Assembly: GCA_964016885.1 (NCBI GenBank)
Contig: OZ024761.1
Coordinates: 4,650,001-4,714,000 of the forward strand
DNA: 64,000 bases
Direction: 5' to 3'
Origin: Eledone cirrhosa
Lineage: Eukaryota
Part shown: positions 15,711-58,534 of the stretch, in pieces
How positions within the stretch are numbered: the first letter of the stretch is position 1
Layout of the letters: every line of letters begins with the position of its first letter
Made by a program: the position numbers and the translations under genes
Notes under the pieces: generated by a model
The model's database searches: none
Seen by the model: only the letters and a program-made list of their open reading frames with translations
What the model was told of the DNA's origin: nothing

Positions 15711-15712
<2 letters not shown>

Positions 15713-17307: not shown

Positions 17308-17393
<86 letters not shown>

Positions 17394-17620
17394 CGAAGGA
17401 AGTGTGGTAAGGAACCAGGTGGACCATAGCGAAACCAGAGTACTCGATATTTTGGGTAGTAGAGTGGGTAATAGGAAAAGGTTCAGGACCCCGACTGCAG
17501 AATTCAAGCCGTTTCCACGGCCGGAACGACTTGAGCTCTGCCGTCGGGGTCCTGAACATTTTCACATATATATATAGGTATATGAAGTACGTAAAGAGGT
17601 GAAGAAATGTATGTACATAC

Positions 17621-24155: not shown

Positions 24156-24963
24156 TGCAACATCCTTCTTTTCCCCACTTGCTGAACAAGATAGGGGAAA
24201 CCCCAGCCAACATAGGTAGATGTACTTCTTTTCTCCCCCCCCCTATTCCTTCCTATCACTTCCTTCCTATCACTTCCTTCCAATCCCTCTTCTCTTCCTT
24301 TTCTTTTTTCCTCTTTCGCCTACCCGAGGCAGCCCATCTTGCTTTTATAGCCTCAGTACCCCCAATCCAGTAAATTATATATAGCACTGGCCGAAAACGC
24401 ATATAGCACAGCTGCTTTAGACTCTAGAGATTTTTACTTTTTACTATTTAATTTAATTATTTTTATATACTTTTTATTTATTTATTACCTTTTAATCTCA
24501 TTTTATTAACCTATTCTATAACGTCCCACCCTCTCTATTTCCTCCAGAATCCTTTGTCGCCTGCTTCTCTACTAGCCTAATTTCACACACACTCCTTAGA
24601 ATCTGCTGTATAGAAGTCACTTTCCAAGCTTAACCGGCCCCAACCACTCCCTCACTGTTATACAGGAAAGTTCAGCCACCCCCACTTCCCACCCACTGCC
24701 ATGAAAGACTTAATTATGTTTACAAGAAATTTTAACCAATCCTTTTGACAACTACAATCTTCCCATATAAGGAATTACCCGTTGAAAAGTTCGGCTATTT
24801 ATTTACCACTCTAAAAATTCTAATTTAGACCAGAAATAGCCGTCGAAACGGCTTGAGCTCTGCCGTCGGGGTTAAAGTTTTTCCTATTACCCACTCTACT
24901 AGCCTAAGTATTGAGTACTCTGGTGCGTTATGGTCCATCTGGTTCCTTACCACACCTCCTTCG

Positions 24964-25027
<64 letters not shown>

Positions 25028-25291
25028 CGGAGGAAATGTGGTAAGGAACCAGGTGGACCATAACGCACCAAAGTACTCAATACTTAGGGTAGTAGAGTGG
25101 GTAATAGGAACGAGAAGGACCCCGACGGCTGAGCTCAAGCCGTTTCGACGGCTAATTCTGGACTAAAATCTATCATATGACTCCAGTTCCCCAGTGAATT
25201 AACAACCCAGCAAGGAACTGGGCATATCAGAGTATTGACAATATCATACACCTAAACAACATATGTACTTGTCTATACCATACTAATTCAA

Positions 25292-27449: not shown

Positions 27450-30400
27450 CATTAGCCCAGAGGCTCATTAGACTAGAGACTAATTAGCCAAGAGACTCAT
27501 CAATTCAGAGATACATTAGACCAGAGATTCATTAGACCAGAGAATAATTAGACCAGAGACTCGTTAGACCAGAGACTCATTAGACCAGAGATACATTAGA
27601 CCAGAGATTCATTAGACCAGAGATTCATTAGACCAGAGACTCATTAGACCAGAGATACATTAGACCAGAGATTCATTAGACCAGAGACTCATTAGACCAG
27701 AGACTAATTAGAGCAGTGACTCATCAGAGAAGAGACTCATTAGACCAGAAACTCATTAGACCAGAGACTCATTAGACCAGAAACTCATTAGACCATAGAT
27801 TCATTAGACCAGACATTCATTAGACCAGATGCTCATTAGACCAGAGACTAATTAGACCAGACACTCATTAGACCAGAGACTCATTAGACCAGAGTCTCAT
27901 TAGAACAGAGATTCATTAGACCAGAGACTAATTAGACCAGAGGCTCATTAGACCAGATATTCATTATACCAGAGACTCATTAGACAATAGACTCATTAGA
28001 CCAGAGTCTCATTAGAACAGAGACTCATTAGACCAGAGAATCATTAGACTAGAGACTCATTATACCAGAGATACATTAGACCAGAGATTCATTAGACCAG
28101 AGACTCATTAGACCAGAGATACATTAGACCAGAGACTAATTACACCAGAGACTCATTAGAACAGAGATTCATTAGACCAGAGACTCATTAGACCAGAGAC
28201 TAATTAGACCAGAGGCTCATTAGACCAGAGATTCATTATACCAGAGACTCATTAGACCAGAGACTCATTAGACCAGAGTCTCATTAGAACAGAGACTCAT
28301 TAGACCAGAGACTCATTAGACCAGAGACTAATTAGACCAGAGGCTCATTAGACCAGAGATTCATTAGACCAGAGACTCATTAGACCAGAGAAAAATTAGA
28401 CCAGAGAATCATTAGACTAGAGACTCATTATACCAGAGATACATTAGACCAGAGATTCATTAGACCAGAGACTCATTAGACCAGAGATACATTAGACCAG
28501 AGACTAATTAGACCAGAGACTCATTAGACCAGAGACTAATTAGACCAGAGGCTCATTAGACCAGAGATTCATTATACCAGAGACTCATTAGACCAGAGAC
28601 TCATTAGACCAGAGTCTCATTAGAACAGAGACTCATTAGACCAGAGGCTCATTAGACCAGAGATTCATTAGACCAGAGACTCATTAGACCAGAGAAACAT
28701 TAGACCAGAGAATCATTAGACTAGAGACTCATTATACCAGAGACTCATTAGACCAGAGACTAATTAGACCAGAGGCTCATTAGACCAGAGATTCATTATA
28801 CCAGAGACTCATTAGACCAGAGTCTCAATCGAACAGAGACTCATTAGACCAGAGACTCATTAGACCAGAGACTAATTAGACCAGAGTCTCATTAGACCAG
28901 AGATTCATTAGACCAGAGACTCATTAGACCAGAGAAACATTAGACCAGAGAATCATTAGACTAGAGAATCATTATACCAGAGATACATTAGACCAGAGAT
29001 TCATTAGACCAGAGACTCATTAGACCAGAGATACATTAGACCAGAGACTAATTAGACCAGAGACTCATTAGACCAGAGACTCATTAGACCAGAGGCTCAT
29101 TAGACCAGAGATTCATTAGATCAGAGGCTCATTAGAACAGACACTAATTAGACGAGAGACTCATTAGACAAGAGACTAATTAGACCAGAAACTAATTAGA
29201 CCAGAGACTAATTAGACCAGAGACTCATTAGACTAGAGTCTCATTAGACGAGAGATTCATTAAACCAGAAACTCATTAGACCAGAGACTCATTAGACCAG
29301 AGACTCATTAGACCAGAGTCTAATTAGACCAGAAACTCATTAAACCAGAGATTCATTAGACCAGAGATTCATTAGACGAGAGGCTCATTAGACCAGAGAA
29401 TAATTAGACCAGAGACTCATTGGACCAAAAACTCATTAGACCAGAGACTAATTAGACCAGAGACTCATTAAACCAGAGATTCATTAGACCAGAGATTCAT
29501 TAGACCAGAGGCTCATTAGACCAGAGACTAATTAAACCAGAGAATTATTAGACCAGAGATTGATTAGACCAGAGATTCATTAGATCAGAGGCTCATTTGA
29601 CCAGATACTAATTAGACCAGGGACTCATTATACCAGAGACTCATTAGACCAGAGTCTCTTTAGAACAGAGATTCATTAGACCAGAGACTAATTTGACAAG
29701 AGATTCATCATTAGACCAGATACATCATTTGACCAGAGATTAATTAGACCAGAGACTGTTTAGATCAGAGACTCAGTAGACCAGAGTCTCATTAGAACAG
29801 AGGCTCATTAGACAAGAGATTCATTAGACCAGAGACTCATTAGACCAGAGATTCATTAGATCAGAGGCTCATTATAACAGACACTAATTAGACGAGAGAC
29901 TCATTAGACAAGAGACTAATTAGACCAGAAACTAATTAGACCAGAGACTAATTAGACCAGAGACTCATTAGACTAGAGACTCATTAGACGAGAGATTCAT
30001 TAAACCAGAAACTCATTAGACCAGAGACTCATTAGACCAGAGACTCATTAGACCAGAGTCTAATTAGACCAGAAACTCATCAAACCAGAGATTCATTAGA
30101 CCAGAGATTCATTAGACGAGAGGCTCATTAGACCAGAGAATAATTAGACCAGAGACTCATTGGACCAAAAACTCATTAGACCAGAGACTAATTAGACCAG
30201 AGACTCATTAAACCAGAGATTCATTAGACCAGAGATTCATTAGACCAGAGGCTCATTAGACCAGAGACTAATTAGACAAGAGACTCCTTAGACCAGAGAC
30301 TAATTAGACCAGAGACTCTTTAGACCAGAGACTCATTAGACAAGATATTCTTTAGACCAGAGACTCATTAGACCAGAGATTCATTAGACCAGAGATTCAT

Positions 30401-33400
30401 TAGACCATAGATTCATTAGACCAGAGATTCATTAGACCAGAGGCTCATTAGAACAGAGACTAATTAGATCAGAGACTCATTAGACAAGAGACTAATTAGA
30501 CCAGAGACTCATTAGACTAGAGACTCATTAGACCAGAGATTCCTTAGACAAGAGATTCATTAGACCAGAGACTCATTAGACCAGATATTCATTAGACCGG
30601 AGGCTCATTAGACCAGAGACTCATTAGACCAGAGACTAATTAGACCAGAGACTCATTAGACCAGAGACTTATTAGACCATAAACTTATTAGACAAGAGAC
30701 TAATTAGACCAGAGACACATTAGACTAAAGACTCATTACACCAGAGATTCATTAGACCAGAAACTCATTAGACCAGAGACTAATTAGACCAGAGATTCAT
30801 TAGACCAGAAACTCATTAGACCGGAGACTAATTAGACCAGAGACTCATTAGACCAGAGATTCATTATACCAGAGACTCATTAGACCAGAGTCTCATTAGA
30901 ACAGAGTCTCATTAGACCAGAGACTCATTAGACCAGAGACTAATTAGACCAGAGTCTCATTAGACCAGAGATTCATTAGACCAGAGACTCATTAGACCAG
31001 AGAAACATTAGACCAGAGAATCATTATACCAGAGATACATTAGACCAGAGATTCATTAGACCAGAGACTCATTAGACCAGAGATACATTAGACCAGAGAC
31101 TAATTAGACCAGAGACTCATTAGACCAGAGACTCATTAGACCAGAGGCTCATTAGACCAGAGATTCATTACACAAGAGGCTCATTAGACCAGAGATTCAT
31201 TTGACCAAAGATTCATTAGACCAGAGCCTCATTAGACAAGAGCCTCATTAGACAAGAGATTCATTAGACCAGGGGTTCATTAGACCAGAGACTCATTAGA
31301 CCAGAGACACAGTAGACCAGAGATTCATTAGACCAGAGGCTCATTACACAAGAGACTCAGTAGACCAGAGATTCATTAGACCAGAGACTCATTAGACCAG
31401 AGACTAATTACACCAGAGATTCATTAGACCAGAGATTCACTAGACCAGAGGTTCATTAGACCAGCGACTCATTAGACCAGAGATTCATTAGACCAGAGAC
31501 TCATTAGACCAGAGATTCATTAGACCAGAGGCTCATTAGAACAGAGATTCATTAGACCAGAGGCTCATTAGACAAAATATTCATTAGACCAGAGACCCAT
31601 TAGACCAGAGATTTATTAGACCAGAGATTCATTAGACCGGAGATTCATTAGACCAGATGCTCATTAGAACAGAGACTAATTAGACCAGAGGCTCATTAGA
31701 CAAAATATTCATTAGACCAGAGACCCATTAGACCAGAGATTCATTAGACTAGAGATTCATTAGACAAGAGATTTATTACACCAGAAACTCATTAGACCAG
31801 AGACTAATTAGACCAGAGATTCATTAGACCAGAGGTTCATGTTACCAGAGGCTCATTAGAACAGAGATTCATTAGACCAGAGGCTCATTAGACAAAATAT
31901 TCATTAGACCAGAGACCCATTAGACCAGAGATTCATTAGACCAGAGATTCATTAGACCGGAGGCTCATTAGACCAGAGACTAATTATACCAGAGACTCAT
32001 TATACCAGAGACTCATTAGACCAGAGACTCATTAGAACAGAGACTCATTAGACTAGAGATTCATTAGACAAGAGATTTATTACACCAGAAACTCATTAGA
32101 CCAGAGACTAATTAGACCAGAGATTCATTAGACCAGAGGTTCATGTTACCAGAGACTCATTAGACCAGAGACTCATTAGACCAGAGTCTCATTAGACCAG
32201 AGATTCATTAGACCAGAGGCTCATTAGACCAGAGACTAATTAGACCAGAGACTCATTAGACCAGAGACTCATTAGACCAGAAATTCATTAGACCAGAGGC
32301 TCATTAGCCCAGAGAGTAATTAGACAAGAGATTCATCATTAGACCAGATACATCATTAGACAAGAGACTCATTAGACCAGAGACTATTTAGACCAGAGAC
32401 TCATTAGACCAGAGACTCATTAGACCATAAACTCATTAGATAAGAGACTAATTAGACCAGAGCCTCATTAGACTAGAGACTCATTAGGCAAGAGATTCAT
32501 TACACCAGAAACTCATTAGACCAGAGACTAATTAGACCAGACATTCATTAGACCAGAGGTTCATTTTACCAGAGATACATTAGACCAGAGACTCATTAGA
32601 CCAGAGTCTCATTAGACCAGAGATTCATTAGACCAGAGGCTCATTAGAACAGAGATTCATTAGACCAGAGGCTCATTAGCCCAGAGAGTAATTAGACACG
32701 AGATTCATCATTAGACCAGATACATCATTAGACCAGATTCATCATTAGACCAGAGACTATTTAGACCAGAGACTCATTAGATCAGAGCCTCATTAGACCA
32801 GAGACTCATTAGGCCAGAGTCTCATTAGAACATAGATTCATTAGACCAGATACTCAATAGACCAGAGACTAATTAGACCAGAGGCTCATTAGACCAGAGA
32901 CTAATTAGACCAGAGACTCGTTAGAACAGAGACTCATTATACCAGAGACTAATTAGACCAATGACTCATCAGACCAGAGACGCATTAGACCAGAGACTCA
33001 TTAGACCAGAGACTAATTAGACCAGAGACTCATTAAACCAGAGATTCATTAGACCAGAGATTCATTAGACCAGAGATTCATTCAACCAGAGATTCATTAG
33101 ACCCGAGGCTCATTAGACCTGAGACTAATTAGACCAGAGACTCATTAGACCAGAGACTCATTAGACCAGAGATTCATTAGACCAGAGGCTCATTAGACCA
33201 GAGACTAATTAAACCAGAGAATTATTAGACCAGAGATTGATTAGACCAGAGATTCATTAGACCAGAGGCTCATTTGACCAGATACTAATTAGACCAGGGA
33301 CTCATTATACCAGAGACTCATTAGACCAGAGTCTCTTTAGAACAGAGATTCATTAGACCAGAGACTAATTTGACAAGAGATTCATCATTAGACCAGATAC

Positions 33401-36400
33401 ATCATTTGACCAGAGATTAATTAGACCAGAGACTGTTTAGATCAGAGACTCATTAGACCAGAGTCTCATTAGAACAGAGGCTCATTAGACAAGAGATTCA
33501 TTAGACCAGAGACTCATTAGACCAGAGATTCATTAGATCAGAGGCTCATTAGAACAGACACTAATTAGACGAGAGACTCATTAGACAAGAGACTAATTAG
33601 ACCAGAAACTAATTAGACCAGAGACTAATTAGACCAGAGACTCATTAGACTAGAGTCTCATTAGACGAGAGATTCATTAAACCAGAAACTCATTAGACCA
33701 GAGACTCATTTGACCAGAGACTCATTAGACCAGAGTCTAATTAGACCAGAAACTCATTAAACCAGAGATTCATTAGACCAGAGATTCATTAGACGAAAGG
33801 CTCATTAGACCAGAGAATAATTAGACCAGAGACTCATTGGACCAAAAACTCATTAGACCAGAGACTAATTAGACCAGAGACTCATTAAACCAGAGATTCA
33901 TTAGACCAGAGATTCATTAGACCAGAGGCTCATTAGACCAGAGACTAATTAAACCAGAGAATTATTAGACCAGAGATTGATTAGACCAGAGATTCATTAG
34001 ACCAGAGGCTCATTTGACCAGATACTAATTAGACCAGGGACTCATTATACCAGAGACTCATTAGACCAGAGTCTTTTTAGAACAGAGATTCATTAGACCA
34101 GAGACTAATTTGACAAGAGATTCATCATTAGACCAGATACATCATTTGACCAGAGATTAATTAGACCAGAGACTGTTTAGATCAGAGACTCATTAGACCA
34201 GAGTCTCATTAGAACAGAGGCTCATTAGACAAGAGATTCATTAGACCAGAGACTCATTAGACCAGAGATTCATTAGATCAGAGGCTCATTATAACAGACA
34301 CTAATTAGACGAGAGACTCATTAGACAAGAGACTAATTAGACCAGAAACTAATTAGACCAGAGACTAATTAGACCAGAGACTCATTAGACTAGAGACTCA
34401 TTAGACGAGAGATTCATTAAACCAGAAACTCATTAGACCAGAGACTCATTAGACCAGAGACTCATTAGACCAGAGTCTAATTAGACCAGAAACTCATCAA
34501 ACCAGAGATTCATTAGACCAGAGATTCATTAGACGAGAGGCTCATTAGACCAGAGAATAATTAGACCAGAGACTCATTGGACCAAAAACTCATTAGACCA
34601 GAGACTAATTAGACCAGAGACTCATTAAACCAGAGATTCATTAGACCAGAGATTCATTAGACCAGAGGCTCATTAGACCAGAGACTAATTAGACAAGAGA
34701 CTCCTTAGACCAGAGACTAATTAGACCAGAGACTCTTTAGACCAGAGACTCATTAGACAAGATATTCTTTAGACCAGAGACTCATTAGACCAGAGATTCA
34801 TTAGACCAGAGATTCATTAGACCATAGATTCATTAGACCAGAGATTCATTAGACCAGAGGCTCATTAGAACAGAGACTAATTAGATCAGAGACTCATTAG
34901 ACAAGAGACTAATTAGACCAGAGACTCATTAGACTAGAGACTCATTAGACCAGAGATTCCTTAGACAAGAGATTCATTAGACCAGAGACTCATTAGACCA
35001 GATATTCATTAGACCGGAGGCTCATTAGACCAGAGACTCATTAGACCAGAGACTAATTAGACCAGAGACTCATTAGACCAGAGACTTATTAGACCATAAA
35101 CTTATTAGACAAGAGACTAATTAGACCAGAGACACATTAGACTAAAGACTCATTACACCAGAGATTCATTAGACCAGAAACTCATTAGACCAGAGACTAA
35201 TTAGACCAGAGATTCATTAGACCAGAAACTCATTAGACCGGAGACTAATTAGACCAGAGACTCATTAGACCAGAGACTAATTAGACAAGGGACTCATTAG
35301 ACCAGAGACTCATTAGACCAGAGACTAATTAGACCAGAGACTCATTAGACCAGAGACTCATTAGGCCAGAGTCTCATTAGACCAGATTCTAATTAGACCA
35401 GAGGTTCATTAGACCAGAGACTCATTAGACCAGAGATTCATTAGACCAGAGATTCATTAGACCAGAGGCTCATTAGATCAGAGACTCATTAGACCAGAGA
35501 CTCATTAGACCAGAGACTAATTAGACCAGAGATTCATTAGACCATAGATTCATTAGACCAGAGACTCATTAGACCAGAGATTCATTAGACCATAGATTCA
35601 TTAGACAAGAGACTCATTAGACCAGAAACTCATTAGATCATAGATTCATTAGACCAGAGATTCATTTGACCAGGGGGTCATTAGACCAGATACTAATTAG
35701 ACGAGGGACTCATTATACCAGAGACTCATTAAACCAGAGTCTCTTTAGAACAGGGATTCATTAGACCAGAGACTAATTTGACAAGAGATTCATCATTAGA
35801 CCAGATACATCATTTGACCAGAGACTAATTAGACCAGAGACTGTTTAGATCAGAGACTCATTAGACCAGAGTCTCATTAGAACAGAGGCTCATTAGACAA
35901 GAGATTCATTAGACCAGAGTCTCATTAGACCAGAGATTCATTAGATCAGAGGCTCATTAGAACAGACACTAATTAGACGAGAGACTCATTAGACAAGAGA
36001 CTAATTAGACCAGAAACTAATGAGACCAGAGACTAATTAGACCAGAGATTCATTAGACCAGAGATTCATTAGACGAGAGGCTCATTAGACCAGAGAATAA
36101 TTAGACCAGAGACTCATTAGACCAAAAACTCATTAGACCAGAGACTAATTAGACCAGAGACTCATTAAACCAGAGATTCATTAGACCAGAGATTCATTTG
36201 ACCAGAGGCTCATTAGACCAGAGACTAATTAGACAAGAGACTCCTTAGACCAGAGACTAATTAGACCAGAGACTCTTTAGACCAGAGACTCATTAGACAA
36301 GATATTCTTTAGACCAGAGACTCATTAGACCAGAGATTCATTAGACCAGAGATTCATTAGACCATAGATTCATTAGACCAGAGATTCATTAGACCAGAGG

Positions 36401-39192
36401 CTCATTAGAACAGAGACTAATTAGATCAGAGACTCATTAGACAAGAGACTAATTAGACCAGAGACTTATTAGACTAGAGACTCATTAGACCAGAGATTCC
36501 TTAGACAAGAGTTTCATTAGACCAGAGACTCATTAGACCAGATATTCATTAGACCGGAGGCTCATTAGACCAGAGACTCATTAGACCAGAGACTAATTAG
36601 ACCAGAGACTCATTAGACCAGAGACTTATTAGACCATAAACTTATTAGACAAGAGACTAATTAGACCAGAGACTCATTAGACTAAAGACTCATTAGACCA
36701 GAGATTCATTAGACCAGAAACTCATTAGACCAGAGACTAATTAGACCAGAGATTCATTAGACCAGAAACTCATTAGACCGGAGACTAATTAGACCAGAGA
36801 CTCATTAGACCAGAGACTAATTAGACAAGGGACTCATTAGACCAGAGACTCATTAGACCAGAGACTCACTAGACCAGAGACTAATTAGACCAGAGATTCA
36901 TTAGACCATAGATTCATTAGACCAGAGACTCATTAGACCAGAGATTCATTAGACCATAGATTCATTAGACAAGAGACTCATTAGACCAGAAACTCATTAG
37001 ATCATAGATTCATTAGACCAGAGATTCATTTGACCAGGGGGTCATTAGACCAGATACTAATTAGACGAGGGACTCATTATACCAGAGACTCATTAAACCA
37101 GAGTCTCTTTAGAACAGGGATTCATTAGACCAGAGACTAATTTGACAAGAGATTCATCATTAGACCAGATACATCATTTGACCAGAGACTAATTAGACCA
37201 GAGACTGTTTAGATCAGAGACTCATTAGACCAGAGTCTCATTAGAACAGAGGCTCATTAGACAAGAGATTCATTAGACCAGAGTCTCATTAGACCAGAGA
37301 TTCATTAGATCAGAGGCTCATTAGAACAGACACTAATTAGACGAGAGACTCATTAGACAAGAGACTAATTAGACCAGAAACTAATGAGACCAGAGACTAA
37401 TTAGACCAGAGATTCATTAGACCAGAGATTCATTAGACGAGAGGCTCATTAGACCAGAGAATAATTAGACCAGAGACTCATTAGACCAAAAACTCATTAG
37501 ACCAGAGACTAATTAGACCAGAGACTCATTAAACCAGAGATTCATTAGACCAGAGATTCATTTGACCAGAGGCTCATTAGACCAGAGACTAATTAGACAA
37601 GAGACTCCTTAGACCAGAGACTAATTAGACCAGAGACTCTTTAGACCAGAGACTCATTAGACAAGATATTCTTTAGACCAGAGACTCATTAGACCAGAGA
37701 TTCATTAGACCAGAGATTCATTAGACCATAGATTCATTAGACCAGAGATTCATTAGACCAGAGGCTCATTAGAACAGAGACTAATTAGATCAGAGACTCA
37801 TTAGACAAGAGACTAATTAGACCAGAGACTTATTAGACTAGAGACTCATTAGACCAGAGATTCCTTAGACAAGAGTTTCATTAGACCAGAGACTCATTAG
37901 ACCAGATATTCATTAGACCGGAGGCTCATTAGACCAGAGACTCATTAGACCAGAGACTAATTAGACCAGAGACTCATTAGACCAGAGACTTATTAGACCA
38001 TAAACTTATTAGACAAGAGACTAATTAGACCAGAGACTCATTAGACTAAAGACTCATTAGACCAGAGATTCATTAGACCAGAAACTCATTAGACCAGAGA
38101 CTAATTAGACCAGAGATTCATTAGACCAGAAACTCATTAGACCGGAGACTAATTAGACCAGAGACTCATTAGACCAGAGACTAATTAGACAAGGGACTCA
38201 TTAGACCAGAGACTCATTAGACCAGAGACTCACTAGACCAGAGACTAATTAGACCAGAGACTCATTAGACCAGAGACTCATTAGGCCAGAGTCTCATTAG
38301 ACCAGAGTCTAATTAGACCAGAGGCTCATTAACCAGAGACTCATTAGACCAGAGATTCATTAGACCAGAGATTCATTAGACCAGAGGCTCATTAGACCAG
38401 AGACTCATTAGACCAGAGGCTCATTAGACCAGAGACTCATTAGACCAGAGACTAATTAGACCAGAGATTCATTAGACCATAGATTCATTAGACCAGAGAC
38501 TCATTAGACCAGATATTCATTAGACCATAGATTTATTAGACAAGAGACTCATTAGACCAGAAACTCATTAGACCATAGATTCATTAGACCAGAGATTCAT
38601 TTGACCAGGGGGTCATTAGACCAGATACTAATTAGACCAGAGACTCATTAGACCAGAGACTCATTAGACCAGAGCCTCCTTAGACCAGAGATTCATTAGA
38701 CCAGAGATTTATTAGACCAGAGGCTCATTAGACCAGAGACTAATTATACCAGATAATCATTATACCAGAGACTCATTAGACCAGAGCTACCTTAGACCAG
38801 AGATTCATTAGACCAGAGATTCATTAGATCAGAGGCTCATTAGACCAGAGACTAATTAGACCAGAGATTCATTAGAACAGAGGCTCATTAGACCAGAGAA
38901 TAATTAGACCAGAGACTCATTAGATCAGAGTCTCATTAGACCAGAGATTCATTAGACTAAAGGCTTATTAGACCAGAGACTCATTAGACCAGAGACTGTG
39001 TAGACCAGAGACTAATTAGACCAGAGATTCATTAGACCAGAAACTCATTAGACCAGATATTCATTAGACTAGAGGCTCATTAGACCACTGACTCATTAGA
39101 CCAGAGACTCAGTAGACCAGAGACTCAGCAGACCAGAGATTCATTAGACCAGAAACTCATTAGACTAGAAATTTATTAGACCAGAGACTAAT
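27450..39192. repeat. 11.7-kb satellite of a 16-bp unit (cattagaccagagact) with higher-order duplications
   Basis: Continuous tandem array, roughly 730 units by length; variant blocks recur. Confidence 0.98.
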
Positions 39193-39590: not shown

Positions 39591-40123
39591 AAGAGACTAA
39601 TTAGCCCAGAGATTCATTAGACCAGAAACTCATTAAGCCGGAGCTTATCTGGGTTTCACTGGTTAACCTGCTGTTGAATGAATGAAGCCAAGTGAAATGA
39701 AGTGTTTTGTTCAAGAACACAACGTGCGTTCGCTCCCCCACCTGGCTCGGGGAATCGAACCAACGCTCTAACCTCGTCAACGTGATAAGCCCGGAACATG
39801 AATATATGAAGAAGCCGGTGCTTCAAATAAGTTTAGATGAAAAGGTCAAGAGTTGAAATAAAAAAAAGAAGAGGTGGAAAGAGGCAGTAAAGAAGGGTTA
39901 GTGGGGAACATCCCATGATACAGGCTGCTTAGATACTCATTCACCGAGAAACTAACACAATACTTTCTATACAGTTGTATAGAACACACTTAATTTTGAA
40001 TGGAAAAAGACAGAATAAAGGAGGAAATGTTTAGCCATCCGCAACAATGTAAATTAGATTGTCAACGAACATTTCCATACAGTCACACCAAAGTACAACG
40101 CACCCACCGACATTTGCATAGAT

Positions 40124-46301: not shown

Positions 46302-47215
46302 TGGTTACACAACAGTTAGTTCACCATACCGAGAACAATTGTTTCACCTTAGCGGATCCTCAGCTCGTAATGGACATGGTTATACGGAACAGGAAGGACA
46401 ACCGTACAAACGCGCATGCGCAGAAACGATCACTTTACAGGCAATACTAAAATGCGTGCGAGAGGTGTAAGGGAGATAACTGCGAAAGTACGAACAGTTT
46501 CCAATTGATAAGAAAATTAGGATGTTGTTGCAATTCAATCCGGAGCTTTGTAGTTAGGTAAGAGGTGTTTCGAGACGTGCGGACAACGTGTGAAGAATTC
46601 ATTTCTCGCGTTTAGGCAATCGCTATTGCATAATCTCTTTAGAATATTTATTCGTTCATCAATACATAGTCCACACGACGGATTTCCCCTTGCATATGGC
46701 TTGGACTTAGTGATGGCTTTCCATTGAATGGAGTAGTCTATACTTGAGTCCTTGAGGGACCATACGTGGCTCGCGAGTTTCGTGGATGAACGTCTGTCCG
46801 GGTACCTAAAGGTCGACTGGTGGTTCAGGAAGCGTTCCTTAAATCGGCCCTCCGCCATGCCCACATAGGATTTGACCTCCTGTGATTGATTTGGTCGGTT
46901 GGAAGTGACCACAGCTTCATAAACTACAGCGGGTGTGTTGCATTGCTGTTGAAGGGGACAAGCTTCGGGCTTACGGCAGGAGCACCCTGGTGGGGTGTTG
47001 CTCTTAGGGCTGTTGGTGATGTGGGCCTTCATGTTCTTAGCGCAGGAGTATCCTAGTTTTACTTTGTGTCGGTTAAAGATGGAGCGGTATTTATGACCTA
47101 TGGGAAAGTGTCTATCTAAGAGGGCTAGCAATTTTTTGCCTACATTGGTTTTAACGTTGAGTGAGAAGGGAGGAGAGAACCAGATAGTTTGTCTATTGTT
47201 ACGCTTGATCATCAT
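46300..47215 (-). mobile_element. Penelope-like element 3' part with open GIY-YIG frame (46535-47215)
   Basis: IWFSPPFS, CSC...CPL...C, VVYEA..SYVGMAE..FKER..NH, CGLCIDE, LNARNE..CPH. Confidence 0.93.
46330..46367 (-). ncRNA. Minimal hammerhead in the PLE 3' terminal repeat
   Basis: cgag-CTGAGGA-...-GAAAC-aatt-GTT-ctcg, about 170 bp downstream of the GIY-YIG stop codon. Confidence 0.7.
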
Positions 47216-47339: not shown

Positions 47340-48249
47340 GAGGAGGGCCATCAGTTGACAATAAATGTAAGCTATGTAAAACAAAGATTGAAGATGTTAG
47401 CCACATTGTTGCCAACTGTGAAAGTATGTCGTTTCGCTACTACCTCCCTATGAGACACAATGTGATAGCTAGAACCATCTAGAGCGCAATTAGGAAAACA
47501 AAATTAAAAACAAATGAGGAGGAATATATTGAGACAGATGGCACTAAAGAATACCGATGGAACCTGAAAATAAAAACAGCCACCAAATTAAAGCACAACC
47601 GGCCTGATATTGTTGTTTGGGACCACACATTGAAAACGTGTTCTGTTGTGGAGATCAGCTGCCCACTTGATGTCAACACTGTAAGAAACATACACGAGAA
47701 GGAGGACATCTACGGACGATTGATGAGGAGTTTGCAGATCCAGTATCCAAGATACACCTTCAGCTTCATACCCATCATTATTCGAGCTACAGGTTATATA
47801 CCAACTCGCTTGGATCAAAATATAACTGAACTTAGATTCGTGGACAAAGATCGCAGCTACCTAATTCCTAGACTACAAATGGCTGCGATAGCTGGTACCT
47901 TCAAAATTTGTAAAACGTTCTTGCGATTCAAGGGATGACAATTTCTTTTCTTTTACAACCTTGCCACCAGGAAGGTGGCCGGTCAAAAATGTACTCGAAA
48001 TTAAGAGAAAGAGAAATACATACATACATAGTTCACATGTACAGATACAAAGCATATGCACATGTACACATATAACTAAAAACATACACCTCCACACATA
48101 CAATAACAACCATACCTGCACACATACGCATGCATACAGACATGCATACCTAGTTGATGTTGTGTAAATTCCAATGAGAGTCTTGTAACTATGTTAGAAA
48201 CCGATTCTTTCTCTATTAGCAAACCTTTATAACATTATAAAACCAGAAC
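47340..48249 (+). mobile_element. 5'-truncated R4/Dong-like LINE (CCHC, RLE, 3' UTR)
   Basis: CKLC..EDVSHIVANC, YLPMRH, HNRPDIVVWD, VVEISCP; ends in (ATAC)n. Confidence 0.88.
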
Positions 48250-48556: not shown

Positions 48557-51500
48557 CAGTCAACGCGATGAGTCGCATATTTTGGCGTGGGAGACTATTT
48601 ATTAAATTTAAGATGAATACTATCTCCGACAGTAATGCCACAACTACAGCCAGGTTGAATAACTGGTTATTCTTCTAACTATCCCTTCTGAAGACACCTT
48701 TTATTCGAATTCGTAGAGATATCCGACTAAATACATAATTCCTTTTACAAGGATTTGCTACAAACAGCATGGCTGAACACAACATCAACAAGAAAATTAA
48801 GGAAGTATCGAAGACAAATAACAAAGAAGGTAATCAAACTTTATTCAGTTGTAGCTACAGAAGAAACCGAAATTATAAATCACATTTCTCTTGGAGTTGC
48901 GAACTTAATAATGATTTATTTAATTGTTATAAAATGGCAAAAAACAATCCCTCCATTGGCTATATGAATAGAATGAAGCTACACTGGGACGAAATGCACC
49001 CAGAGCTAAATTATTTCACAGCGAAACAATTACGCCAACAAGCGACGTTTGTTGAACGTAAAAATAACATAAATATTATTAATTGTAAGTCCCCCACAAC
49101 AAACATGGAATCAACAACACGTGCTACAGATCGCCATGCTACTAGACTTCCTAGCAGCCAGGTCGAACAGCGCCTTGAAACAACTATGCCTGTAAGAAAC
49201 TTGACACCACCTGTACCATCTAAGTCTACATCGAATGCTGGGGAAAACACTATCGATAATAATAATAATCGAAGAAATAATAATAATAATCGAATAAATG
49301 TGACACCACGTATACCACCCGAGTCTACCTCGACTGTTGTGGAAAATACTATCGATAATGATAATCAAAAGTATAAACAATTGAAAATTTCCCTCAACGA
49401 AATCTTCCAGAGAGAAATTAACTCATGTATAAATATCTCTCTTGCTGAACGTGTTAAAATGACAATGGTGAATAAAAAACCAAATAATGAAATACTACGT
49501 GTTATTGACGAAATAGGGGATGAATATTTACGACGGATAAAAACCCCAACATTTTGGCAAATCAACGCCTGTTTATATGCCTTAGCAATGACAGTGAAGC
49601 ATTATCTTGGTGATAGCAGAGATATTAACAAGAACAAAACACCACCAAAAATACCATCATATATAACTAAAATAGAAAAAAAGAGTGCTGACCTACGAAA
49701 AAACATAGGACATGTGACAATGCTCCTTACATGCAAACAAACACAAAAAACCTCACTCCTCACCAACAAAGAGTGAAAAATAAAATAGAGATGATGTTTG
49801 GTAACAGTAGAACCAGAACTCTCCAATATAAGCTGATCTCCAATATAGGCTGTCTTCTTCTTGGGCTACTATCCTAAGGTTAAAGACAGAGAGGGAGGAC
49901 TCTATTTTCACTGATAAAATAAAATATTGCAGGGGTATATTTCAGGGGGACAGTCTCTCTGTGATATTGTTCATCTTGTCATTAAACCCCTTGTCCTTTC
50001 TGCTTAAGAAATGTGAGGGATACATCATTGGCTCAGAGGAGGACAGAAATACGAAACTAACCCATAACTTCTTTGTGGACGATCTGAAACTCTATGGCAA
50101 GAACATGGATGGGATGAAGAAAAATCTTGACCTGGTTACAACGTTCTCAAAGGATATAGGAATGGAGTTTGGCCAAGATAAATGCTCATACATGACTGTA
50201 AAGCGGAGAAAAACAACAACCCAGTCTAGCAACATTGTCATCAATGGTCTAACTGTTTCACCGATATCTGATGAGGACTGCTACAGATACCTGGGGATAG
50301 ATGAGAACATATCCTATAATGGTATCTGTAATAAAGAACGCGTAACCAGGGAATACTACACCCGATTAAGAAAGATCTGGTCATCGGAACTCTCTGCGCA
50401 AAACAAAACAGTGGCTCACAATGTGTTTGCTGTGCCTGTCCTAACACCAACGTTTGGGATACTCAATTGGACGATAGACGAAATCTGAGCAGTTGATTTT
50501 GGAACTCTAAAAATACTGAACAACACCGGAAACTTCCACATCAACAGTGACATAAACCGCCTTTACTTGAAACGTAAGCAGGGAGGCAGAGGCCTAACAT
50601 CAGTCCAGACAACATTTGAATGTCGCATCATATCTCTCCGACAACATCTACGAACCTCGAAGCGTAGGAGCCCGCTTCTCGAGCAAGTCTATCTGCATGA
50701 AACAGATAAGATCATGAGAGTTGGGAAGGAACTCCTTGAGAGATATTCCCTGTGTGATAATCAAAAACTCACACCCAGGGATGTCGCTCAGCAGTATCGC
50801 AGTGAATCCATGGATGAAAAACTGCATGCCTATCAGCAAAAAATCATGCATGGATATGTTGCCAGGAAGCTCCAGAGTGAGAGTAATATAGATAAGGAAG
50901 GTAGTCTATCTTGGACCAACAACCGCTATATTGACTCCCACTTTGAAGGATATGCTTTTGCAATCGAAGAACAGGAGATTAGCACGAAATACCTGATTCA
51001 CAAAAGAGATAGGGATGCAGGAAAAACACCTAGATGTGATAACAAGTGCAAACTCTGCAGAACTAACATCGAGGATATCACCCATGACATCAGCAGCTGC
51101 CCAAAGATTGTCATCGCGGTACTATCTACCTATGAGGCATGATGTAGTGGCCAAAACACTGTACAATGCAGTTCGTAAAAAAGATAACCCCGATAATAAA
51201 CACATTAAAAGCTACAATAATGTGGAAGACATCCATGTACATAATATGAAAGAGTACTGGTGGAATGTTCCAGTGAAAACCCCAATAAAATGCAGGCATA
51301 ACAGACCAGATATTATGATATGGGACAGGGAGAAGAAAGCATGCACAGTAGTGGAAATTAGCTGCCCAACAGATGCCAATATAATATCAAAGATTAGTGA
51401 AAAGGAGAATATTTATGCAGAACTTATGAGAAATCTGCAGATACTCCACCCTGATTACACCTTCAGATTTATGCCTGTGATTATTAGGGCACTGGGATAC

Positions 51501-51866
51501 GTTAGTAACTGCCTCAATACAAATCTTGAGAAGCTAAGCTTCACAGGAACGGAAAGAACACAACTAGTTACGAAATTACAAGTACAATCCATTAATCCAA
51601 CAGTAAAAATATGTAAAACATTCCAAAAATTTTGCATCTAATAACTGCATATACACATGTACAGATACAAAGCATATACACATGCACACATACAACTCAA
51701 AACATACACATCCACACATACAATAACATCCATATCTACACATGCATGCATACATACATATCTACCTAGTTGATGTTGTGTAAATTCCAATGAGAGAGTC
51801 TTGTGTCTATGTTAGAAACCGACTCTCTCTCGGTAAAACTTTGTAAAATTATAAAACCAGAAGAAC
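48557..51866 (+). mobile_element. R4/Dong-like RLE-clade LINE, internally deleted and frameshifted
   Basis: GIFQGDSLS, FVDDLKLY, YRYLGI, GGRGL, CKLC, RHD, RPDIMIWD..VVEISCP; both ends present; (ATAC)n flanks. Confidence 0.92.
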
Positions 51867-52479
51867 ATACATACATACATATATGATGGTTACAAACTCA
51901 GCTAAGAGTACTGCAATCGCTTGTCAGATTATAGAGTTTGGTGCATTTGTAGGCTACGACCAGCCACACGAATCTGTAACAAATCCTGAACAAGCAATGT
52001 TGACCTTAGAAAGTGTTGACTTTAGCTGTGTCACCATTATATATATATGATAGCACCCTCCCAGCCTTCGCTCTCGTCTGTGCTTCACAAGACACCTATT
52101 GCCATCTGTCGTAGTCTCTAGTTTCATTAAAAGATGTTAAATGGTATTTAAATATGGCATAACATAATTTTTAAAATCTATTTAGAATATCTAAATAGAG
52201 AAAGTAATAAAGAAAATAACAGAAAAATGAAGTCTATGGAAATTATAAAACATTTACAGAACTTCAGTATATAAAATGTTGGTAACTTTTTTCTTTGGAG
52301 CATATATGCAGAGTTTGTTGGGCTTTCCTAGTCTGGAATAATTTACATACAATGGACCATGTAAGAAACATCTCTCTTCTAGATGGAGACTGACAACCTG
52401 CAGGGTTTGATCTTGGGACTTGTTAATGGTCATTATGTAACTGACTCTCACTGGGAATGGCATCATTTGAAATGGAAGG

Positions 52480-55400
52480 GGACATCTGTTGGTATTATCG
52501 GTACTCTAGGACATCTGTTGGTATTATCGGTACTCTAGGACATCTGTTGGTATTATCGGTACTCTAGGACATCTGTTGGTATTATCGGTATTCTAGGACA
52601 TCTGTTGGTATTATCGGTACTCTAGGACATCTGTTGGTATTATAGGTACTCTAGGACATCTGTTGGTATTATCGGTACTCTAGGACATCTGTTGGTATTA
52701 TAGGTATTCTAGGACATCTGTTGGTATTATAGGTATTCTATGACATATGTTGGTATTATAGGTACTCTAGGACATCTGTTGGTATTATAGGTACTCTAGG
52801 ACATCTGTTGGTATTATCAGTACTCTAGAACATCTGTTGGTATTATTGGTATTCTAGGACATCTGTTGGTATTATCGGTACTCTAGGACATCTGTTGGTA
52901 TTATCTGTATTCTAGGATATCTGTTGGTATTATCGGTACTTTAGGATTTCTGTTGGTATTATCTGTATTCTAGGACATCTGTTGGTATTATCGGTATTCT
53001 AGGACATCTGTTGGTATTATCTGTATTCTAGGACATCTGTTGATATTATCATTACTCTAGGACATCTGTTGGTATTATCGGTACTCTAGGACATCTGTTG
53101 GTATTATCGGTACTCTAGGACATCTGTTGGTATTATCGGTATTCTAGGACATCTGTTGGTATTATCGGTACTCTAGGACATCTGTTGGTATTATAGGTAC
53201 TCTAGGACATCTGTTGGTATTATCTGTATTCTAGGACATCTGTTGGTATTATCGGTATTCTAGGACATCTGTTGGTATTATCGGTTCTCTAAGACATCTG
53301 TTGGTATTATCGGTATTCTAGGACATCTGTTGGTATTATCGGTACTCTAGGACATCTGTTGGTATTATCGGTACTCTAGGACATCTGTTGGTATTATAGG
53401 TACTCTAGGACATCTGTTGGTATTATCTGTATTCTAGGACATCTGTTGGTATTATCGGTATTCTAGGACATCTGTTGGTATTATCGGTTCTCTAAGACAT
53501 CTGTTGGTATTATCGGTATTCTAGGACATCTGTTGGTATTATCGGTACTCTAGGACATCTGTTGGTATTATCGGTACTCTAGGACATCTGTTGGTATTAT
53601 CGGTACTCTAGGACATCTGTTGGTATTATCGGTACTCTAGGACATCTGTTGGTATTATCGGTATTCTAGGACATCTGTTGATATTATCATTACTCTAGGA
53701 CATCTGTTGGTATTATCTGTATTGTAGGACATCTGTTGGTATTATCGGTATTCTAGGACATCTGTTGATATTATCATTACTCTAGGACATCTGTTGGTAT
53801 TATCGGTACTCTAGGACATCTGTTGGTATTATCGGTATTCTAGGACATCTGTTGGTATTATCGGTACTCTAGGACATCTGTTGGTATTATAGGTACTCTA
53901 GGACATCTGTTGGTATTATCTGTATTCTAGGACATCTGTTGGTATTATCGGTATTCTAGGACATCTGTTGGTATTATCGGTTCTCTAAGACATCTGTTGG
54001 TATTATCGGTATTCTAGGACATCTGTTGGTATTATCGGTACTCTAGGACATCTGTTGGTATTATCGGTACTCTAGGACATCTGTTGGTATTATAGGTACT
54101 CTAGGACATCTGTTGGTATTATCTGTATTCTAGGACATCTGTTGGTATTATCGGTATTCTAGGACATCTGTTGGTATTATCGGTTCTCTAAGACATCTGT
54201 TGGTATTATCGGTATTCTAGGACATCTGTTGGTATTATCGGTACTCTAGGACATCTGTTGGTATTATCGGTACTCTAGGACATCTGTTGGTATTATCGGT
54301 ACTCTAGGACATCTGTTGGTATTATCGGTACTCTAGGACATCTGTTGGTATTATCGGTACTCTAGGACATCTGTTGGTATTATCGGTATTCTAGGACATC
54401 TGTTGATATTATCATTACTCTAGGACATCTGTTGGTATTATCTGTATTCTAGGACATCTGTTGGTATTATCGGTATTCTAGGACATCTGTTGATATTATC
54501 ATTACTCTAGGACATCTGTTGGTATTATCGGTACTCTAGGACATCTGTTGGTATTATCGGTATTCTAGGACATCTGTTGGTATTATCGGTACTCTAGGAC
54601 ATCTGTTGGTATTATAGGTACTCTAGGACATCTGTTGGTATTATCTGTATTCTAGGACATCTGTTGGTATTATCGGTATTCTAGGACATCTGTTGGTATT
54701 ATCGGTTCTCTAAGACATCTGTTGGTATTATCGGTATTCTAGGACATCTGTTGGTATTATCGGTACTCTAGGACATCTGTTGGTATTATCGGTACTCTAG
54801 GACATCTGTTGGTATTATAGGTACTCTAGGACATCTGTTGGTATTATCTGTATTCTAGGACATCTGTTGGTATTATCGGTATTCTAGGACATCTGTTGGT
54901 ATTATCGGTTCTCTAAGACATCTGTTGGTATTATCGGTATTCTAGGACATCTGTTGGTATTATCGGTACTCTAGGACATCTGTTGGTATTATCGGTACTC
55001 TAGGACATCTGTTGGTATTATCGGTACTCTAGGACATCTGTTGGTATTATCGGTACTCTAGGACATCTGTTGGTATTATCGGTATTCTAGGACATCTGTT
55101 GATATTATCATTACTCTAGGACATCTGTTGGTATTATCTGTATTCTAGGACATCTGTTGGTATTATCGGTATTCTAGGACATCTGTTGATATTATCATTA
55201 CTCTAGGACATCTGTTGGTATTATCGGTACTCTAGGACATCTGTTGGTATTATCGGTACTCTAGGACATCTGTTGGTATTATCGGTATTCTAGGACATCT
55301 GTTGATATTATCATTACTCTAGGACATCTGTTGGTATTATCTGTATTCTAGGACATCTGTTGGTATTATCGGTATTCTAGGACATCTGTTGATATTATCA

Positions 55401-56048
55401 TTACTCTAGGACATCTGTTGGTATTATCGGTACTCTAGGACATCTGTTGGTATTATCGGTACTCTAGGACATCTGTTGGTATTATCGGTATTCTAGGACA
55501 TCTGTTGATATTATCATTACTCTAGGACATCTGTTGGTATTATCTGTATTCTAGGACATCTGTTGGTATTATCGGTATTCTAGGACATCTGTTGATATTA
55601 TCATTACTCTAGGACATCTGTTGGTATTATCGGTACTCTAGGACATCTGTTGGTATTATCGGTATTCTAGGACATCTGTTGATATTATCATTACTCTAGG
55701 ACATCTGTTGGTATTATCTGTATTCTAGGACATCTGTTGGTATTATCATTACTCTCGGACATCTGTTGGTATTATCGGTACTCTAGGACATCTGTTGGTA
55801 TTATCGGTATTCTAGGACATCTGTTGATATTATCATTACTCTAGGACATCTGTTGGTATTATCGGTACTCTAGGACATCTGTTGGTATTATCGGTATTCT
55901 AGGACATCTGTTGATATTATCATTACTCTAGGACATCTGTTGGTATTATCGGTACTCTAGGACATCTGTTGGTATTATCGATACTCTAGCACATCTGTTG
56001 GTATTATAGGTATTCTAGAACATCTGTTGGTATTATCGATACTCTAGG
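52480..56048. repeat. 29-bp satellite (ggacatctgttggtattatcggtactcta), ~120 copies
   Basis: Direct tandem array. Confidence 0.98.
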
Positions 56049-56110
56049 TATAAATACGATGTCTCACTACAACATCCAGTGAGGATTTTGGCTTCGATAA
56101 TGTGAGGCTG

Positions 56111-56860
56111 TAGTTCAGTCACAACCATACGTATCCCTAGTTCAGTCACAACCATACGTATCCCTAGTTCAGTCACAACCATACGTATCCCTAGTTCAGT
56201 CACAACCATACGTATCCCTAGTTCAGTCACAACCATACGTATCCCTAGTTCAGTCATAACCATACGTATCCCTAGTTCAGTCATAACCATACGTATCCCT
56301 AGTTCAGTCACAACCATACGTATCCCTAGTTCAGTCATAACCATACGTATCCCTAGTTCAGTCATAACCATACGTATCCCTAGTTCAGTCACAACCATAC
56401 GTATCCCTAGTTCAGTCACAACCATACGTATCCCTAGTTCAGTCACAACCATACGTATCCCTAGTTCAGTCATAACCATACGTATCCCTAGTTCAGTCAC
56501 AACCATACGTATCCCTAGTTCAGTCATAACCATACGTATCCCTAGTTCAGTCATAACCATACGTATCCCTAGTTCAGTCACAACCATACGTATCCCTAGT
56601 TCAGTCATAACCATACGTATCCCTAGTTCAGTCATAACCATACGTATCCCTAGTTCAGTCACAACCATACGTATCCCTAGTTCAGTCACAACCATACGTA
56701 TCCCTAGTTCAGTCACAACCATACGTATCCCTAGTTCAGTCACAACCATACGTATCCCTAGTTCAGTCACAACCATACGTATCCCTAGTTCAGTCACAAC
56801 CATACGTATCCCTAGTTCAGTCATAACCATACGTATCCCTAGTTCAGTCACAACCATACG
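56111..56860. repeat. 27-bp minisatellite (tagttcagtcacaaccatacgtatccc), ~28 copies
   Basis: Near-identical units with two variants (cac/cat). Confidence 0.98.
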
Positions 56861-57049
56861 TTACGACAGCTAGATCATCAGAACTACTTCTCATCTAGCT
56901 GTCGTAACGGCTGGAGCTCAGCCGTCGGGGTCCTGACTCTTTTCCTATATATATATATATATATATATATATAACGAAGGAAAAGTGGTAAGGAACCAGG
57001 TGGACCATAACGCACCAAAGTACTCAATACTTGAGGTAGTAGAGTGGGT

Positions 57050-57093
<44 letters not shown>

Positions 57094-58534
57094 CATGGCT
57101 TAGTGGTTAAAGCATTGGGATTGCAATCGAAAGGTTGTGAGTTCTATTCTCGGACCGGGTGATGTGTTGTTTCCTTGAGCAAGACACTTTATTTCACGTT
57201 GCTCCAGTTTTACTCAATATGGCGGTGGATTGGCAGTATCGGTAGAGGGTCGGACGCCATGCTTTCCAGCATAGAGTTACGTCCTTTTACGATCTGAGTT
57301 CAAATCCAGCCGCGGTTGACTTTGCCTTTCATCCTTACGGGGTCGATAAAATAAAGTACCAGTAATGCACTGGGTCATTGCTGGCCTTGTGCCTAAAGTA
57401 GAAACAATTAATTTCAAAAACACCGAATATTCAAGACATTGTCAAACTGACATATGTTTCTGCCGGCCTAAAGACCTCCAATTGCAAAATTTCAAAATTT
57501 TAAATTCTGAAATTTTATCGTTTTATAACTAAACCCCAGGTGTTGATTCAAGGTCGGTGTCATCACAGTTTATTTATACATCATCAATATTTCACACAGG
57601 TTAAAATTTCATTACTCATTTATCATTCATTAGAAAAACAGAATAGGAGAATATTTTAAAAAATCTTTAAAAGTTCCAATGTTTATGTATGAGATCCTCA
57701 TATTCAAAAATCAAAATACACAGCACAATACCAAATTTACATATTAGTCCATTTAGTGCACGAAATAAAATTGAAAATTTATGCATACACGTCGGTGTGT
57801 GGTGTATCTATGCATCCATTGAATATGTATAGAATTTAGGTAGAGTTTCAATCTTCGATATCCTAAATTGAAGACATTTTTACAAGGGCGGTGCCCCAGC
57901 AAGGCCTCAGCCGGATGGCTGGAACAGGTATACACAATTTAAATACAAAAAACAACAACTGTCTTTCTCATTATTAAGCAGGTGTTTGGAACATAACATA
58001 ATACAGGTCTTTTCATAGAATTATGATGGAAGGATTTTAGATAAATCTAAATACTTTAAAAGTTTTGTATTGTAGAATCAGTTTCAGGTAGCAACAAACT
58101 AGTTCTCAGGGAGATTCAACGCCACACAGTATAGTGTGATAAGGCCAACCCATTTGAGCTGGCTGCGTCCATGCACACTTAGAATATCCACAGGTAAGTT
58201 ATTCACACCTAGCTCACCTAAATAGACAAAAGGAAAAGTACTATCTTTGTTTCTTTTGAAAATATTAAAAGAATTTTAGTTGTTTATGTGACTCTTCATA
58301 TAATATCATTAAAATCAGCATGGCAAACAAACTGGTCTTTAACACTACTATATGTACATACACACACACACATATATAACTATATGTATACACACACACA
58401 CACATATATATAACTATATGTACACACATAAACACATATACATTACATACATACACATACATACATAAATATACATGCATACATACATACACACATACAT
58501 ACACACACACATGCATACATACATACTCACATAT

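Follow-up and report, generated by a model that had tools for sequence, protein, structure and literature searches.

The stretch of DNA analysed here, referred to as the window, comprises 64,000 bp of the octopus Eledone cirrhosa (GenBank assembly GCA_964016885.1, contig OZ024761.1, positions 4,650,001 to 4,714,000 of the forward strand), and all coordinates below are positions within it. The window harbors on its minus strand two neighboring tandem arrays with units of 29 and 27 bp, a short single-copy spacer between them and, downstream, the C-terminal tail of a helicase. Sequence comparison indicates that each array repeats a short stretch from the remains of a Helitron helicase gene. We consider it probable that they arose after this Helitron copy had decayed, by chance tandem duplications that were followed by growth in blocks, and without participation of a Helitron transposase.

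The two arrays and their surroundings

The 29-bp minisatellite occupies positions 52482-56048 (52480-56048 as delimited by Tandem Repeats Finder). Cut at a fixed period from 56048 down to 52482, it consists of 123 whole units without a single indel. The units fall into 18 types with 19 derived alleles and differ from each other by 6.5% in the pairwise mean. Translated from the minus strand, the majority unit gives PRVPIIPTD(V), the helicase codons that form the seed of the array, and this is the reading (PRVPIIPTDV) given in a preliminary description of the DNA. The 27-bp minisatellite (56111-56861, minus strand) contains 27 whole units (56111-56839) and a partial unit of 22 nt at its upstream side (56840-56861). 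It has only two unit types, present in 17 and 10 copies, with one variable site and a pairwise difference of 1.8%. Each unit equals nine in-frame codons, GIRMVVTEL or GIRMVMTEL, and corresponds by homology to the GTRL stretch that closes the Pif1 2B domain. The preliminary description had this sequence right and its phase wrong: it gave RMVVTELGI, while the last copy runs into QPHII, so that the unit is GIRMVVTEL and matches the GTRL profile columns. The best ungapped identity between the 27-bp and the 29-bp unit is 13/27 bases, and no further copies of either unit were found elsewhere in the 64-kb window when up to six mismatches were allowed.

The spacer between the arrays (56049-56110, 62 bp, minus strand) is single-copy helicase sequence, QPHIIEAKILTG...DIVFI, with one 1-nt frameshift. 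Downstream of the 29-bp array lies the helicase C-terminal tail (52254-52481, minus strand), which begins with PFHFK, an in-frame stop and a 1-nt frameshift near 52461 and then continues as an open frame of 67 amino acids from 52457 to 52254 (FPVRV...EVL, followed by a stop codon). Next to it we find the AT-rich 3' non-coding part of a dispersed Helitron-type family (52110-52253, minus strand), which is multicopy in the public runs X4 and X1 described below and has loose ends at 52128. The adjoining GC-rich segment (52040-52109, minus strand) has near single-copy depth and its last bases, ahead of a TA run, are CTAT. It is a possible Helitron 3' end, placed near 52050, that lacks support. Helitron 3' ends are described as a hairpin of 16-20 nt followed by CTRR (PMC13404089); the candidate with its CTAT end folds no better than shuffled sequences (z = -0.66), and the family relatives have no alignment over 52022-52087 at 80%.

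Relation of the units to Helitron helicases

When each array is collapsed to one unit and X is placed at the two 1-nt frameshifts, a reading of 115 residues is obtained. It aligns over 113-115 residues without any gap to six of six helicase proteins, at 49-54% identity. Three of these six are full-length Helitron RepHel proteins and none is a cellular PIF1. The collapsed reading also stops where RepHel proteins stop, at positions 1572/1573 and 1610/1615. The colinear alignment to helicases that the preliminary description had proposed as a check of its reading, with the C-terminal motifs in the order it had stated, is what the comparison returned.

The individual units were compared with a profile made from 69 of 159 fetched proteins, those in which a single T[IV][NH]K motif is preceded by 75 or more residues. 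The profile proteins had been retrieved with the downstream tail as the sole query, so that the agreement between units and profile does not depend on the protein search. At the columns expected for each part, a score of 24.9 bits is obtained for the 29-bp unit, a value reached by none of 117,484 control windows (nine-codon windows from the remainder of the 64-kb window). The spacer scores 25.6 bits (0 of 117,448 control windows) and the 27-bp unit 12.2 bits (2 of 117,484). For either unit the colinear position is the best placement on the profile. A piece of 45 residues made up solely of the two units, the spacer and a short flank scores 37.6 bits, compared with a maximum of 4.5 among the shuffles (1,702 of 2,000 reported). 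The distances to the TINK motif point in the same direction. After collapse, TINK lies 163 nt from the Arg of the 27-bp seed (homolog mode 55 codons, in 18 of 47). For the Pro of the 29-bp seed the distance is 80 nt (homolog mode 27 codons, in 20 of 42, with 29 codons in 18). Both values correspond to exactly one unit per array plus two losses of 1 nt. Across the spacer the distance from R to P is 83 nt, and the modal homolog spacings predict 84. A repeated copy of either motif was seen in none of the 69 homolog segments.

The tail of 67 amino acids alone matched no Pfam family. With the tail as query, phmmer identified 9 proteins among 31 candidates and 2,559 proteins at E 0.001 among 1.84 billion representatives. 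PF14214 is listed for three of the nine matches, namely the three longest, and Helitron_like_N (PF14214), PIF1 (PF05970) and Pif1_2B_dom are all present in the three full-length relatives that were scanned (P0036, P0053, P0082). The best annotated relatives of the tail thus bear out the Helitron/PIF1 identity assigned earlier. One might think instead of a pseudogene of a cellular PIF1 helicase, as the locus holds a helicase tail only and neither a Rep domain nor termini. Such a parent is very improbable in our view: PF14214 occurs in every full-length relative scanned, the sequence belongs to a dispersed multicopy family in two species, no intron interrupts the 115 codons of the helicase reading, and the end of the reading coincides with the ends of RepHel proteins.

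Matches of nine helicase proteins (three of them about 1,415 amino acids long and with PF14214) to the window were confined to 52257-52592, and helicase sequence upstream of 56861 was not found. A search in cis revealed neither a Rep (HUH) domain nor a 5'-TC end, and the DNA upstream belongs to another repeat family. With Rep domain and 5' end missing, the locus is a Helitron fragment and not an intact or mobile element. Helitrons insert between A and T without duplicating the target, and of the two junctions that would display this the 5' one is lost here. Tblastn broke the collapsed DNA at the frameshifts, and the distant homologs (P0001-P0009) matched the upstream pieces weakly. A protein search with three 27-bp units and the spacer gave no match at E 10 among 1,007 candidates, and no Rfam family was detected in the window.

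Among the best 150 protein matches to the tail, 18 contain at least two matched stretches. Three of these multi-stretch proteins were looked up (P0010, P0012 and P0018), and two are predicted proteins of Cordylochernes scorpioides, with blocks of the same helicase region repeated. The predicted protein P0010 has seven tandem copies of about 63 residues from the Helitron helicase tail. Longer tandem multiplication of the helicase region, or gene models that join neighboring copies, occurs elsewhere.

The parent family and the decay of this copy

Four of nine public runs (X1, X4, X7 and X8) were aligned to positions 51890-52540. The segment 52110-52510 represents a dispersed family that has many copies in each of two species (runs X4 and X1). 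In X4 the summed contig depth is about 1,100-7,800 over 52132-52483 and about 10 in the unique flank, and in X1 the depth in the unique flank is 0. Majority sites are covered by 40-86 contigs. Of the 32 rows listed between 52142 and 52504, 27 have a family majority that is unlike this copy in X4 as well as in X1. These 27 differences in 363 bp (7.4%) are a lower bound, as 501 further rows stand beside the 32. Contigs of the relatives have an extra base behind 52461 (8 contigs in X4, 22 in X1), exactly where this copy shifts its frame. At position 52498 the family base is G, which is also found in the raw reads (19 of 20 in X7 and 12 of 12 in X8), and T is present in 123 of 123 units of the 29-bp array (unit column 13 is invariant). 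A T that is common to all 123 units means that the array likely grew from an already mutated copy. With two frameshifts, a stop and at least 27 differences in 363 bp, it is very likely that the helicase copy had decayed before the arrays arose. For position 52498 this order can be read directly, for the other sites it is the order that we infer. The preliminary description correctly placed the origin of the arrays in conserved helicase motifs; this conservation serves as a tool for dating and would not be the cause of the expansion, as the copy was very likely already decayed. Helitrons of Octopus vulgaris are reported to have expanded at a distance of 0.09, about 25 million years ago (PMC13282606), and a correspondence with the divergence of at least 7% found for this copy is only possible.

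The sampled relatives do not continue into the second 29-bp unit, with the exception of one ambiguous X4 contig. Depth at 52528-52540 is zero in X7 and X8, and the alignment of X1 record 8 ends at 52507, with 239 unlike letters following. The preliminary description had proposed to check whether other copies of this Helitron lack the arrays; over the aligned region, 51890-52540, the sampled relatives lack the 29-bp array, apart from this one contig. On the other side of the Helitron remnant, some 40-110 bp past it, positions 51890-51999 are a very high-copy repeat with a sharp end at 51999, where the relatives continue with other sequence.

Reality and copy number of the arrays

Run X4 contains this locus, as a contig from the flank has 1 difference in 260 bases, and the 29-bp array is supported in the run by a joint that goes back 58 bases (2 contigs). 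We compared the X4 depth with a simple unitig simulation, in which a single array of 123 units is sampled at a depth of 10.1. In the last two bins this rough model expects 6,245 and 2,380, and 4,232 and 1,527 are observed. At 52498 it expects 2,111 for T (observed at most 1,110), and at 52504 it expects 3,111 for C (observed at most 854). The depth over the array amounts to 0.27-0.68 of the single-array prediction. By the model there would be no excess depth in X4 that calls for more 29-bp arrays elsewhere. A figure of about 110 copies derived from X4 depth was dropped, because overlaps inflate summed contig depth. The restriction site-associated DNA (RAD) runs did not sample the locus, with 0 (X7) and 1 (X8) reads of at least 99% identity. 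Very long arrays or many loci, the hallmarks of a classical satellite, are not what is found here (3.6 kb and 0.75 kb). Both arrays appear to be single-locus minisatellites and not a satellite family, and with the X4 contig depth below the prediction for one array we no longer use the label satellite that had been given to them.

The arrays might also be an assembly artefact, or greatly inflated by the assembler. The X4 depth does fall under the 123-unit prediction, and no spanning long read was seen. However, read errors would not produce 18 unit types that are nested in their order and have private alleles toward the ends of the array, and X4 has both the back-joint and a high depth over the units. 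We regard an artefact as hardly credible.

Growth of the arrays

The 29-bp array has nested higher-order blocks at lags of 3, 7, 24/25 and 49 units, and in the order of its units a 7-unit block occurs in doublets within larger blocks of 24/25 units. The longest identical run of unit types is 21 (at lags 25 and 49), compared with a maximum of 9 in 1,000 shuffles. Units with rare alleles are located mostly at the array ends (9 of 11, in units 1-3 and 107-115). This pattern would fit repeated copying of blocks and not rolling-circle copying. A clean snapshot of birth, as which the locus had been seen, is no longer what it offers: the 29-bp array went through several rounds of block duplication, and the 27-bp array has lost its upstream edge.

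The flanks of the seeds share little. Microhomology is 2 bp for the 29-mer and absent for the 27-mer on the surviving side. The flanking-repeat duplication model is described for repeats of 5-10 bp (PMC6947457), and with a flank match of 2 bp it is inapplicable to the 29-mer. Three 29-bp units form no fold, and three 27-bp units reach z = -2.3, with 5 of 200 shuffles equally good. With such weak or absent folding of the units, a structure-driven expansion seems doubtful. The 27-bp array has 1 derived allele in 729 bp and the 29-bp array 19 in 3,567 bp, a difference that is not significant (Poisson P = 0.10). The 27-bp array may be younger than the 29-bp array.

The upstream edge and its hairpin neighbor

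At its upstream edge the 27-bp array meets a truncated hairpin of an unrelated dispersed repeat family (56859-56945, no strand assigned). The hairpin has perfect 17-bp arms (56859-56875 and 56893-56909) and a fold z of -8.0. Its right arm runs unpaired to 56945 and is followed by a TA run and by the 80-bp head of the family (56974-57053, plus strand), which is placed between two TA runs. The 27-bp array replaces the left arm at a CGT microhomology, where 6 of 8 bases agree. The window contains five further members of the head-plus-arm family, with 88-96% identity over the head (15712-15899, 17393-17567, 24837-24964 on the minus strand, 25027-25154 and 25761-25955, in addition to 56859-57053). 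The family layout is an 80-bp head and an arm of about 50 bp in TA runs; in three copies the arm is mirrored over a loop of variable length, and two copies extend into unrelated DNA. For truncated copies of Penelope-like elements, 5' truncation, an adjacent inverted truncated copy and insertion in (TA)n are described (PMC8557442). The layout is alike in 3 of the 5 other copies, which is a resemblance only. The hairpin was also considered as the 5' end of the Helitron, and this was rejected on the grounds of its membership in another family with five further copies in the window. The G-I codons are confined to internal units, which suggests that the loss on the upstream side postdates the first 27-bp duplication.

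These features bear on the idea that hairpin, arrays and the Helitron 3' part together form a mobile non-autonomous Helitron or Helentron, whose arrays were made or spread by rolling-circle transposition. The hairpin does lie on the 5' side, and similar arrangements are reported: Cg_HINE of the oyster Crassostrea gigas has central repeats, exceptionally as two clusters in a row (PMC7492417), and tandem arrays in Helitrons are reported from Xenopus (PMC12001565). However, the hairpin belongs to another family, the five other window copies of which come without Helitron DNA, and the array is not flanked by 5' and 3' modules of its own that are intact, its 5' neighbor being truncated and foreign and the 3' hairpin not significant. 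Furthermore, the sampled relatives stop before the second unit (one ambiguous contig aside), the X4 depth, by the rough unitig model, would leave no room for further copies, and the nested variant blocks fit block duplication. A mobile element of this kind is therefore improbable.

Genomic background

Tandem repeats make up 32,605 of the 64,000 bases of the window (51%, or 47% without the two arrays), and eight other complex arrays are present (period at least 12, at least 3 copies, at least 84% matches, entropy above 1.6). Any DNA here seems prone to expansion, and the Helitron makes the ancestor legible. Another pair of arrays that are unrelated to each other, at 1-841 (28 bp x 30) and 877-1072 (22 bp x 8), is separated by 35 bp. 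A long inverted repeat at about 9040-9420 has a 38-bp unit x4 at its center and is a second case of an array beside a hairpin. The complex array at 7959-8587 is composed of 24-, 35-, 59- and 94-bp variants of one motif, and 46 bp ahead of it lies a TG-rich array of 4.7 kb (3171-7912). A 16-bp unit with 732 copies forms an array of 11.7 kb (27450-39189), and a few degenerate units of it appear again at 39592-39635. Dispersed elements are also found. A broken non-long-terminal-repeat retrotransposon (48739-51641, plus strand) has a reverse transcriptase at 49832-50485 (PF00078, E 5e-11), a downstream frame that we take to be a restriction-like endonuclease, and a related fragment at 47483-47938. 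A frame of 226 codons on the minus strand (46535-47215) matched no Pfam family and is presumably a GIY-YIG endonuclease of a Penelope-like element. A repeat at about 57225-57410, which looks like a short interspersed nuclear element (SINE), has at least five other copies in the window at 85-97% identity and may resemble an octopus SINE.

The surroundings raise the question of independence. The two seeds are independent in sequence (best identity 13/27), and two expansions about 60 bp apart, as claimed before, agree with the 62-bp spacing; for the two events themselves independence is only presumed. Alternatively, the 29-bp array or the hairpin could have caused breaks or stalled replication forks, the repair of which seeded the 27-bp duplication, with the other history unchanged. 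Several observations would be explained in this way. Gaps of at most 65 bp separate neighbors in 2 of 9 cases among the ten complex arrays (62 bp here and 35 bp between 1-841 and 877-1072), with P = 0.006-0.012 for random placement. The 27-bp array looks younger by its derived alleles and adjoins the strong hairpin, and the 38-bp array is situated at the center of the inverted repeat at about 9040-9420. However, the cut-off and the list of arrays were chosen after the data had been seen and the studied pair was preselected; counted as one site, it gives P = 0.10-0.14. The clustering of arrays is the sole sign of anything out of the ordinary here. The age difference is not significant, and the hairpin is probably adjacent only since the later deletion. 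We consider dependent arrays unlikely, though clearly less so than the other alternatives.

Discussion

The locus is real, unusually well resolved and mechanistically ordinary. We favor the view that the arrays grew on a Helitron copy that was already dead. A Helitron-type family, dispersed in this and a second species, would have provided the copy, which differs by at least 7% from the family majority. Decay would have come first, as seen at 52498. A seed of 29 bp and another of 27 bp, with hardly any microhomology at their flanks, would then have been duplicated in separate events. The arrays could later have been enlarged by copying of blocks, be it by slippage, unequal exchange or gene conversion, during replication or repair. 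Such block copying would lead to the nested higher-order repeats, the homogeneous center and the mutated ends that the 29-bp array displays. Finally, at a time after the first 27-bp duplication, the remaining Helitron would have been lost in a deletion that brought the 27-bp array and the hairpin repeat together at a short microhomology. Most likely the arrays have no function.

Some observations weigh against this view or against parts of it. X4 record 15, with 43 other letters and 7 gaps, aligns up to 52526, that is 16 bases into the second unit, and in X1 a depth of 82 remains at 52528-52540. These may be forced alignments, or relatives that carry a duplication. The raw reads represent a small number of loci (9 and 5 start points). 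It is also possible that X4 is the sample from which the assembly was made. Single-copy ancestry of the 27-bp unit is based on distant proteins, as the read alignment covered 51890-52540 alone. The family base at 52504 is a minority type, present in 49 of 123 units and absent from the two end units, so that no particular unit type can be singled out as the seed. Lastly, the two short gaps between arrays hint at some dependence between neighbors.

Repeats that originate from transposon DNA, also from DNA coding for a transposase, have already been published, and the locus clearly exemplifies a known process. Its nearest counterpart is the CficCl-61-40 satellite of Chenopodium, which is described as derived from a fragment of about 40 bp of the tnp2 transposase domain in the CACTA-like element Jozin (PMC7320549). 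In both cases a conserved domain in the coding part of a DNA transposon supplied a short monomer, and the array begins inside a deletion derivative of the element. In contrast, CficCl-61-40 is a major pan-chromosomal family that formed repeatedly from one fragment, whereas here two seeds are found at apparently one locus, in a Helitron helicase, and with colinear helicase sequence around the 29-bp array. In the human genome at least 7,276 tandem repeats are reported as transposon-derived, equal to 23% of mini- and satellites (Ahmed and Liang 2012, PMC3389668). According to this study they grew by local duplication, mostly without flanking direct repeats, and known models explain 6%. The seeds described here are likewise almost without flanking repeats, and the 2-bp microhomology groups the 29-bp seed with the transposon-derived majority that standard models leave unexplained. 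The unexplained human cases are mostly of two units, while the arrays here have 123 and 28 units, higher-order structure and an origin in coding DNA of a rolling-circle element.

Tandem arrays within Helitron-type DNA are also known, sometimes with two kinds in a row. Central tandem repeats are described for Cg_HINE (PMC7492417) and for DINE of Drosophila (review PMC9659126), and 166-bp minisatellites for Heli2Xen (PMC12001565). Those arrays exist in many mobile copies, between intact ends. Unlike them, the present arrays consist of helicase codons, the sampled relatives have no 29-bp array, and the 5' end is gone. Satellites derived from SINEs in squamates resemble the locus in being local arrays from part of a dispersed repeat, below the level of a classic satellite, with a non-coding SINE parent, many loci and many species on their side (PMC10702118). 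The review mentioned above names L1, CR1, gag and Tnp2 transposase as sources whose open reading frames gave rise to tandem repeats, and its Helitron entry refers to the DINE central repeats (PMC9659126). We found no published monomers from RepHel or Helitron coding sequence, in a search of listings, abstracts and passages that had most subscription papers and the supplements in which Helitron-derived arrays are tabulated (e.g. Table S3 of PMC12001565) outside its reach.

Most minisatellites have no known unrepeated ancestor, and their origin can therefore not be read. In the present case the frame and the many relatives fix the ancestor and the boundaries of the seeds, and part of the order of events can be read, from decay over duplication and block growth to deletion. 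This is one neutral locus that changes no concept, and its value is that of a worked example. A more far-reaching idea, which we hold to be rather unlikely, is that new minisatellites of this genome are seeded in the neighborhood of hairpins or of arrays that are already unstable, with no microhomology at their flanks, and thereby spread contagiously along the chromosome, with dead Helitron coding DNA as a ruler throughout the genome. Should this be true, the frame and the ancestral state preserved in the Helitron relatives would give the rate of array birth, the seed junctions and the order of events. In a genome as prone to repeats as this one, systematic mining could yield rates of array birth and the degree to which arrays cluster.

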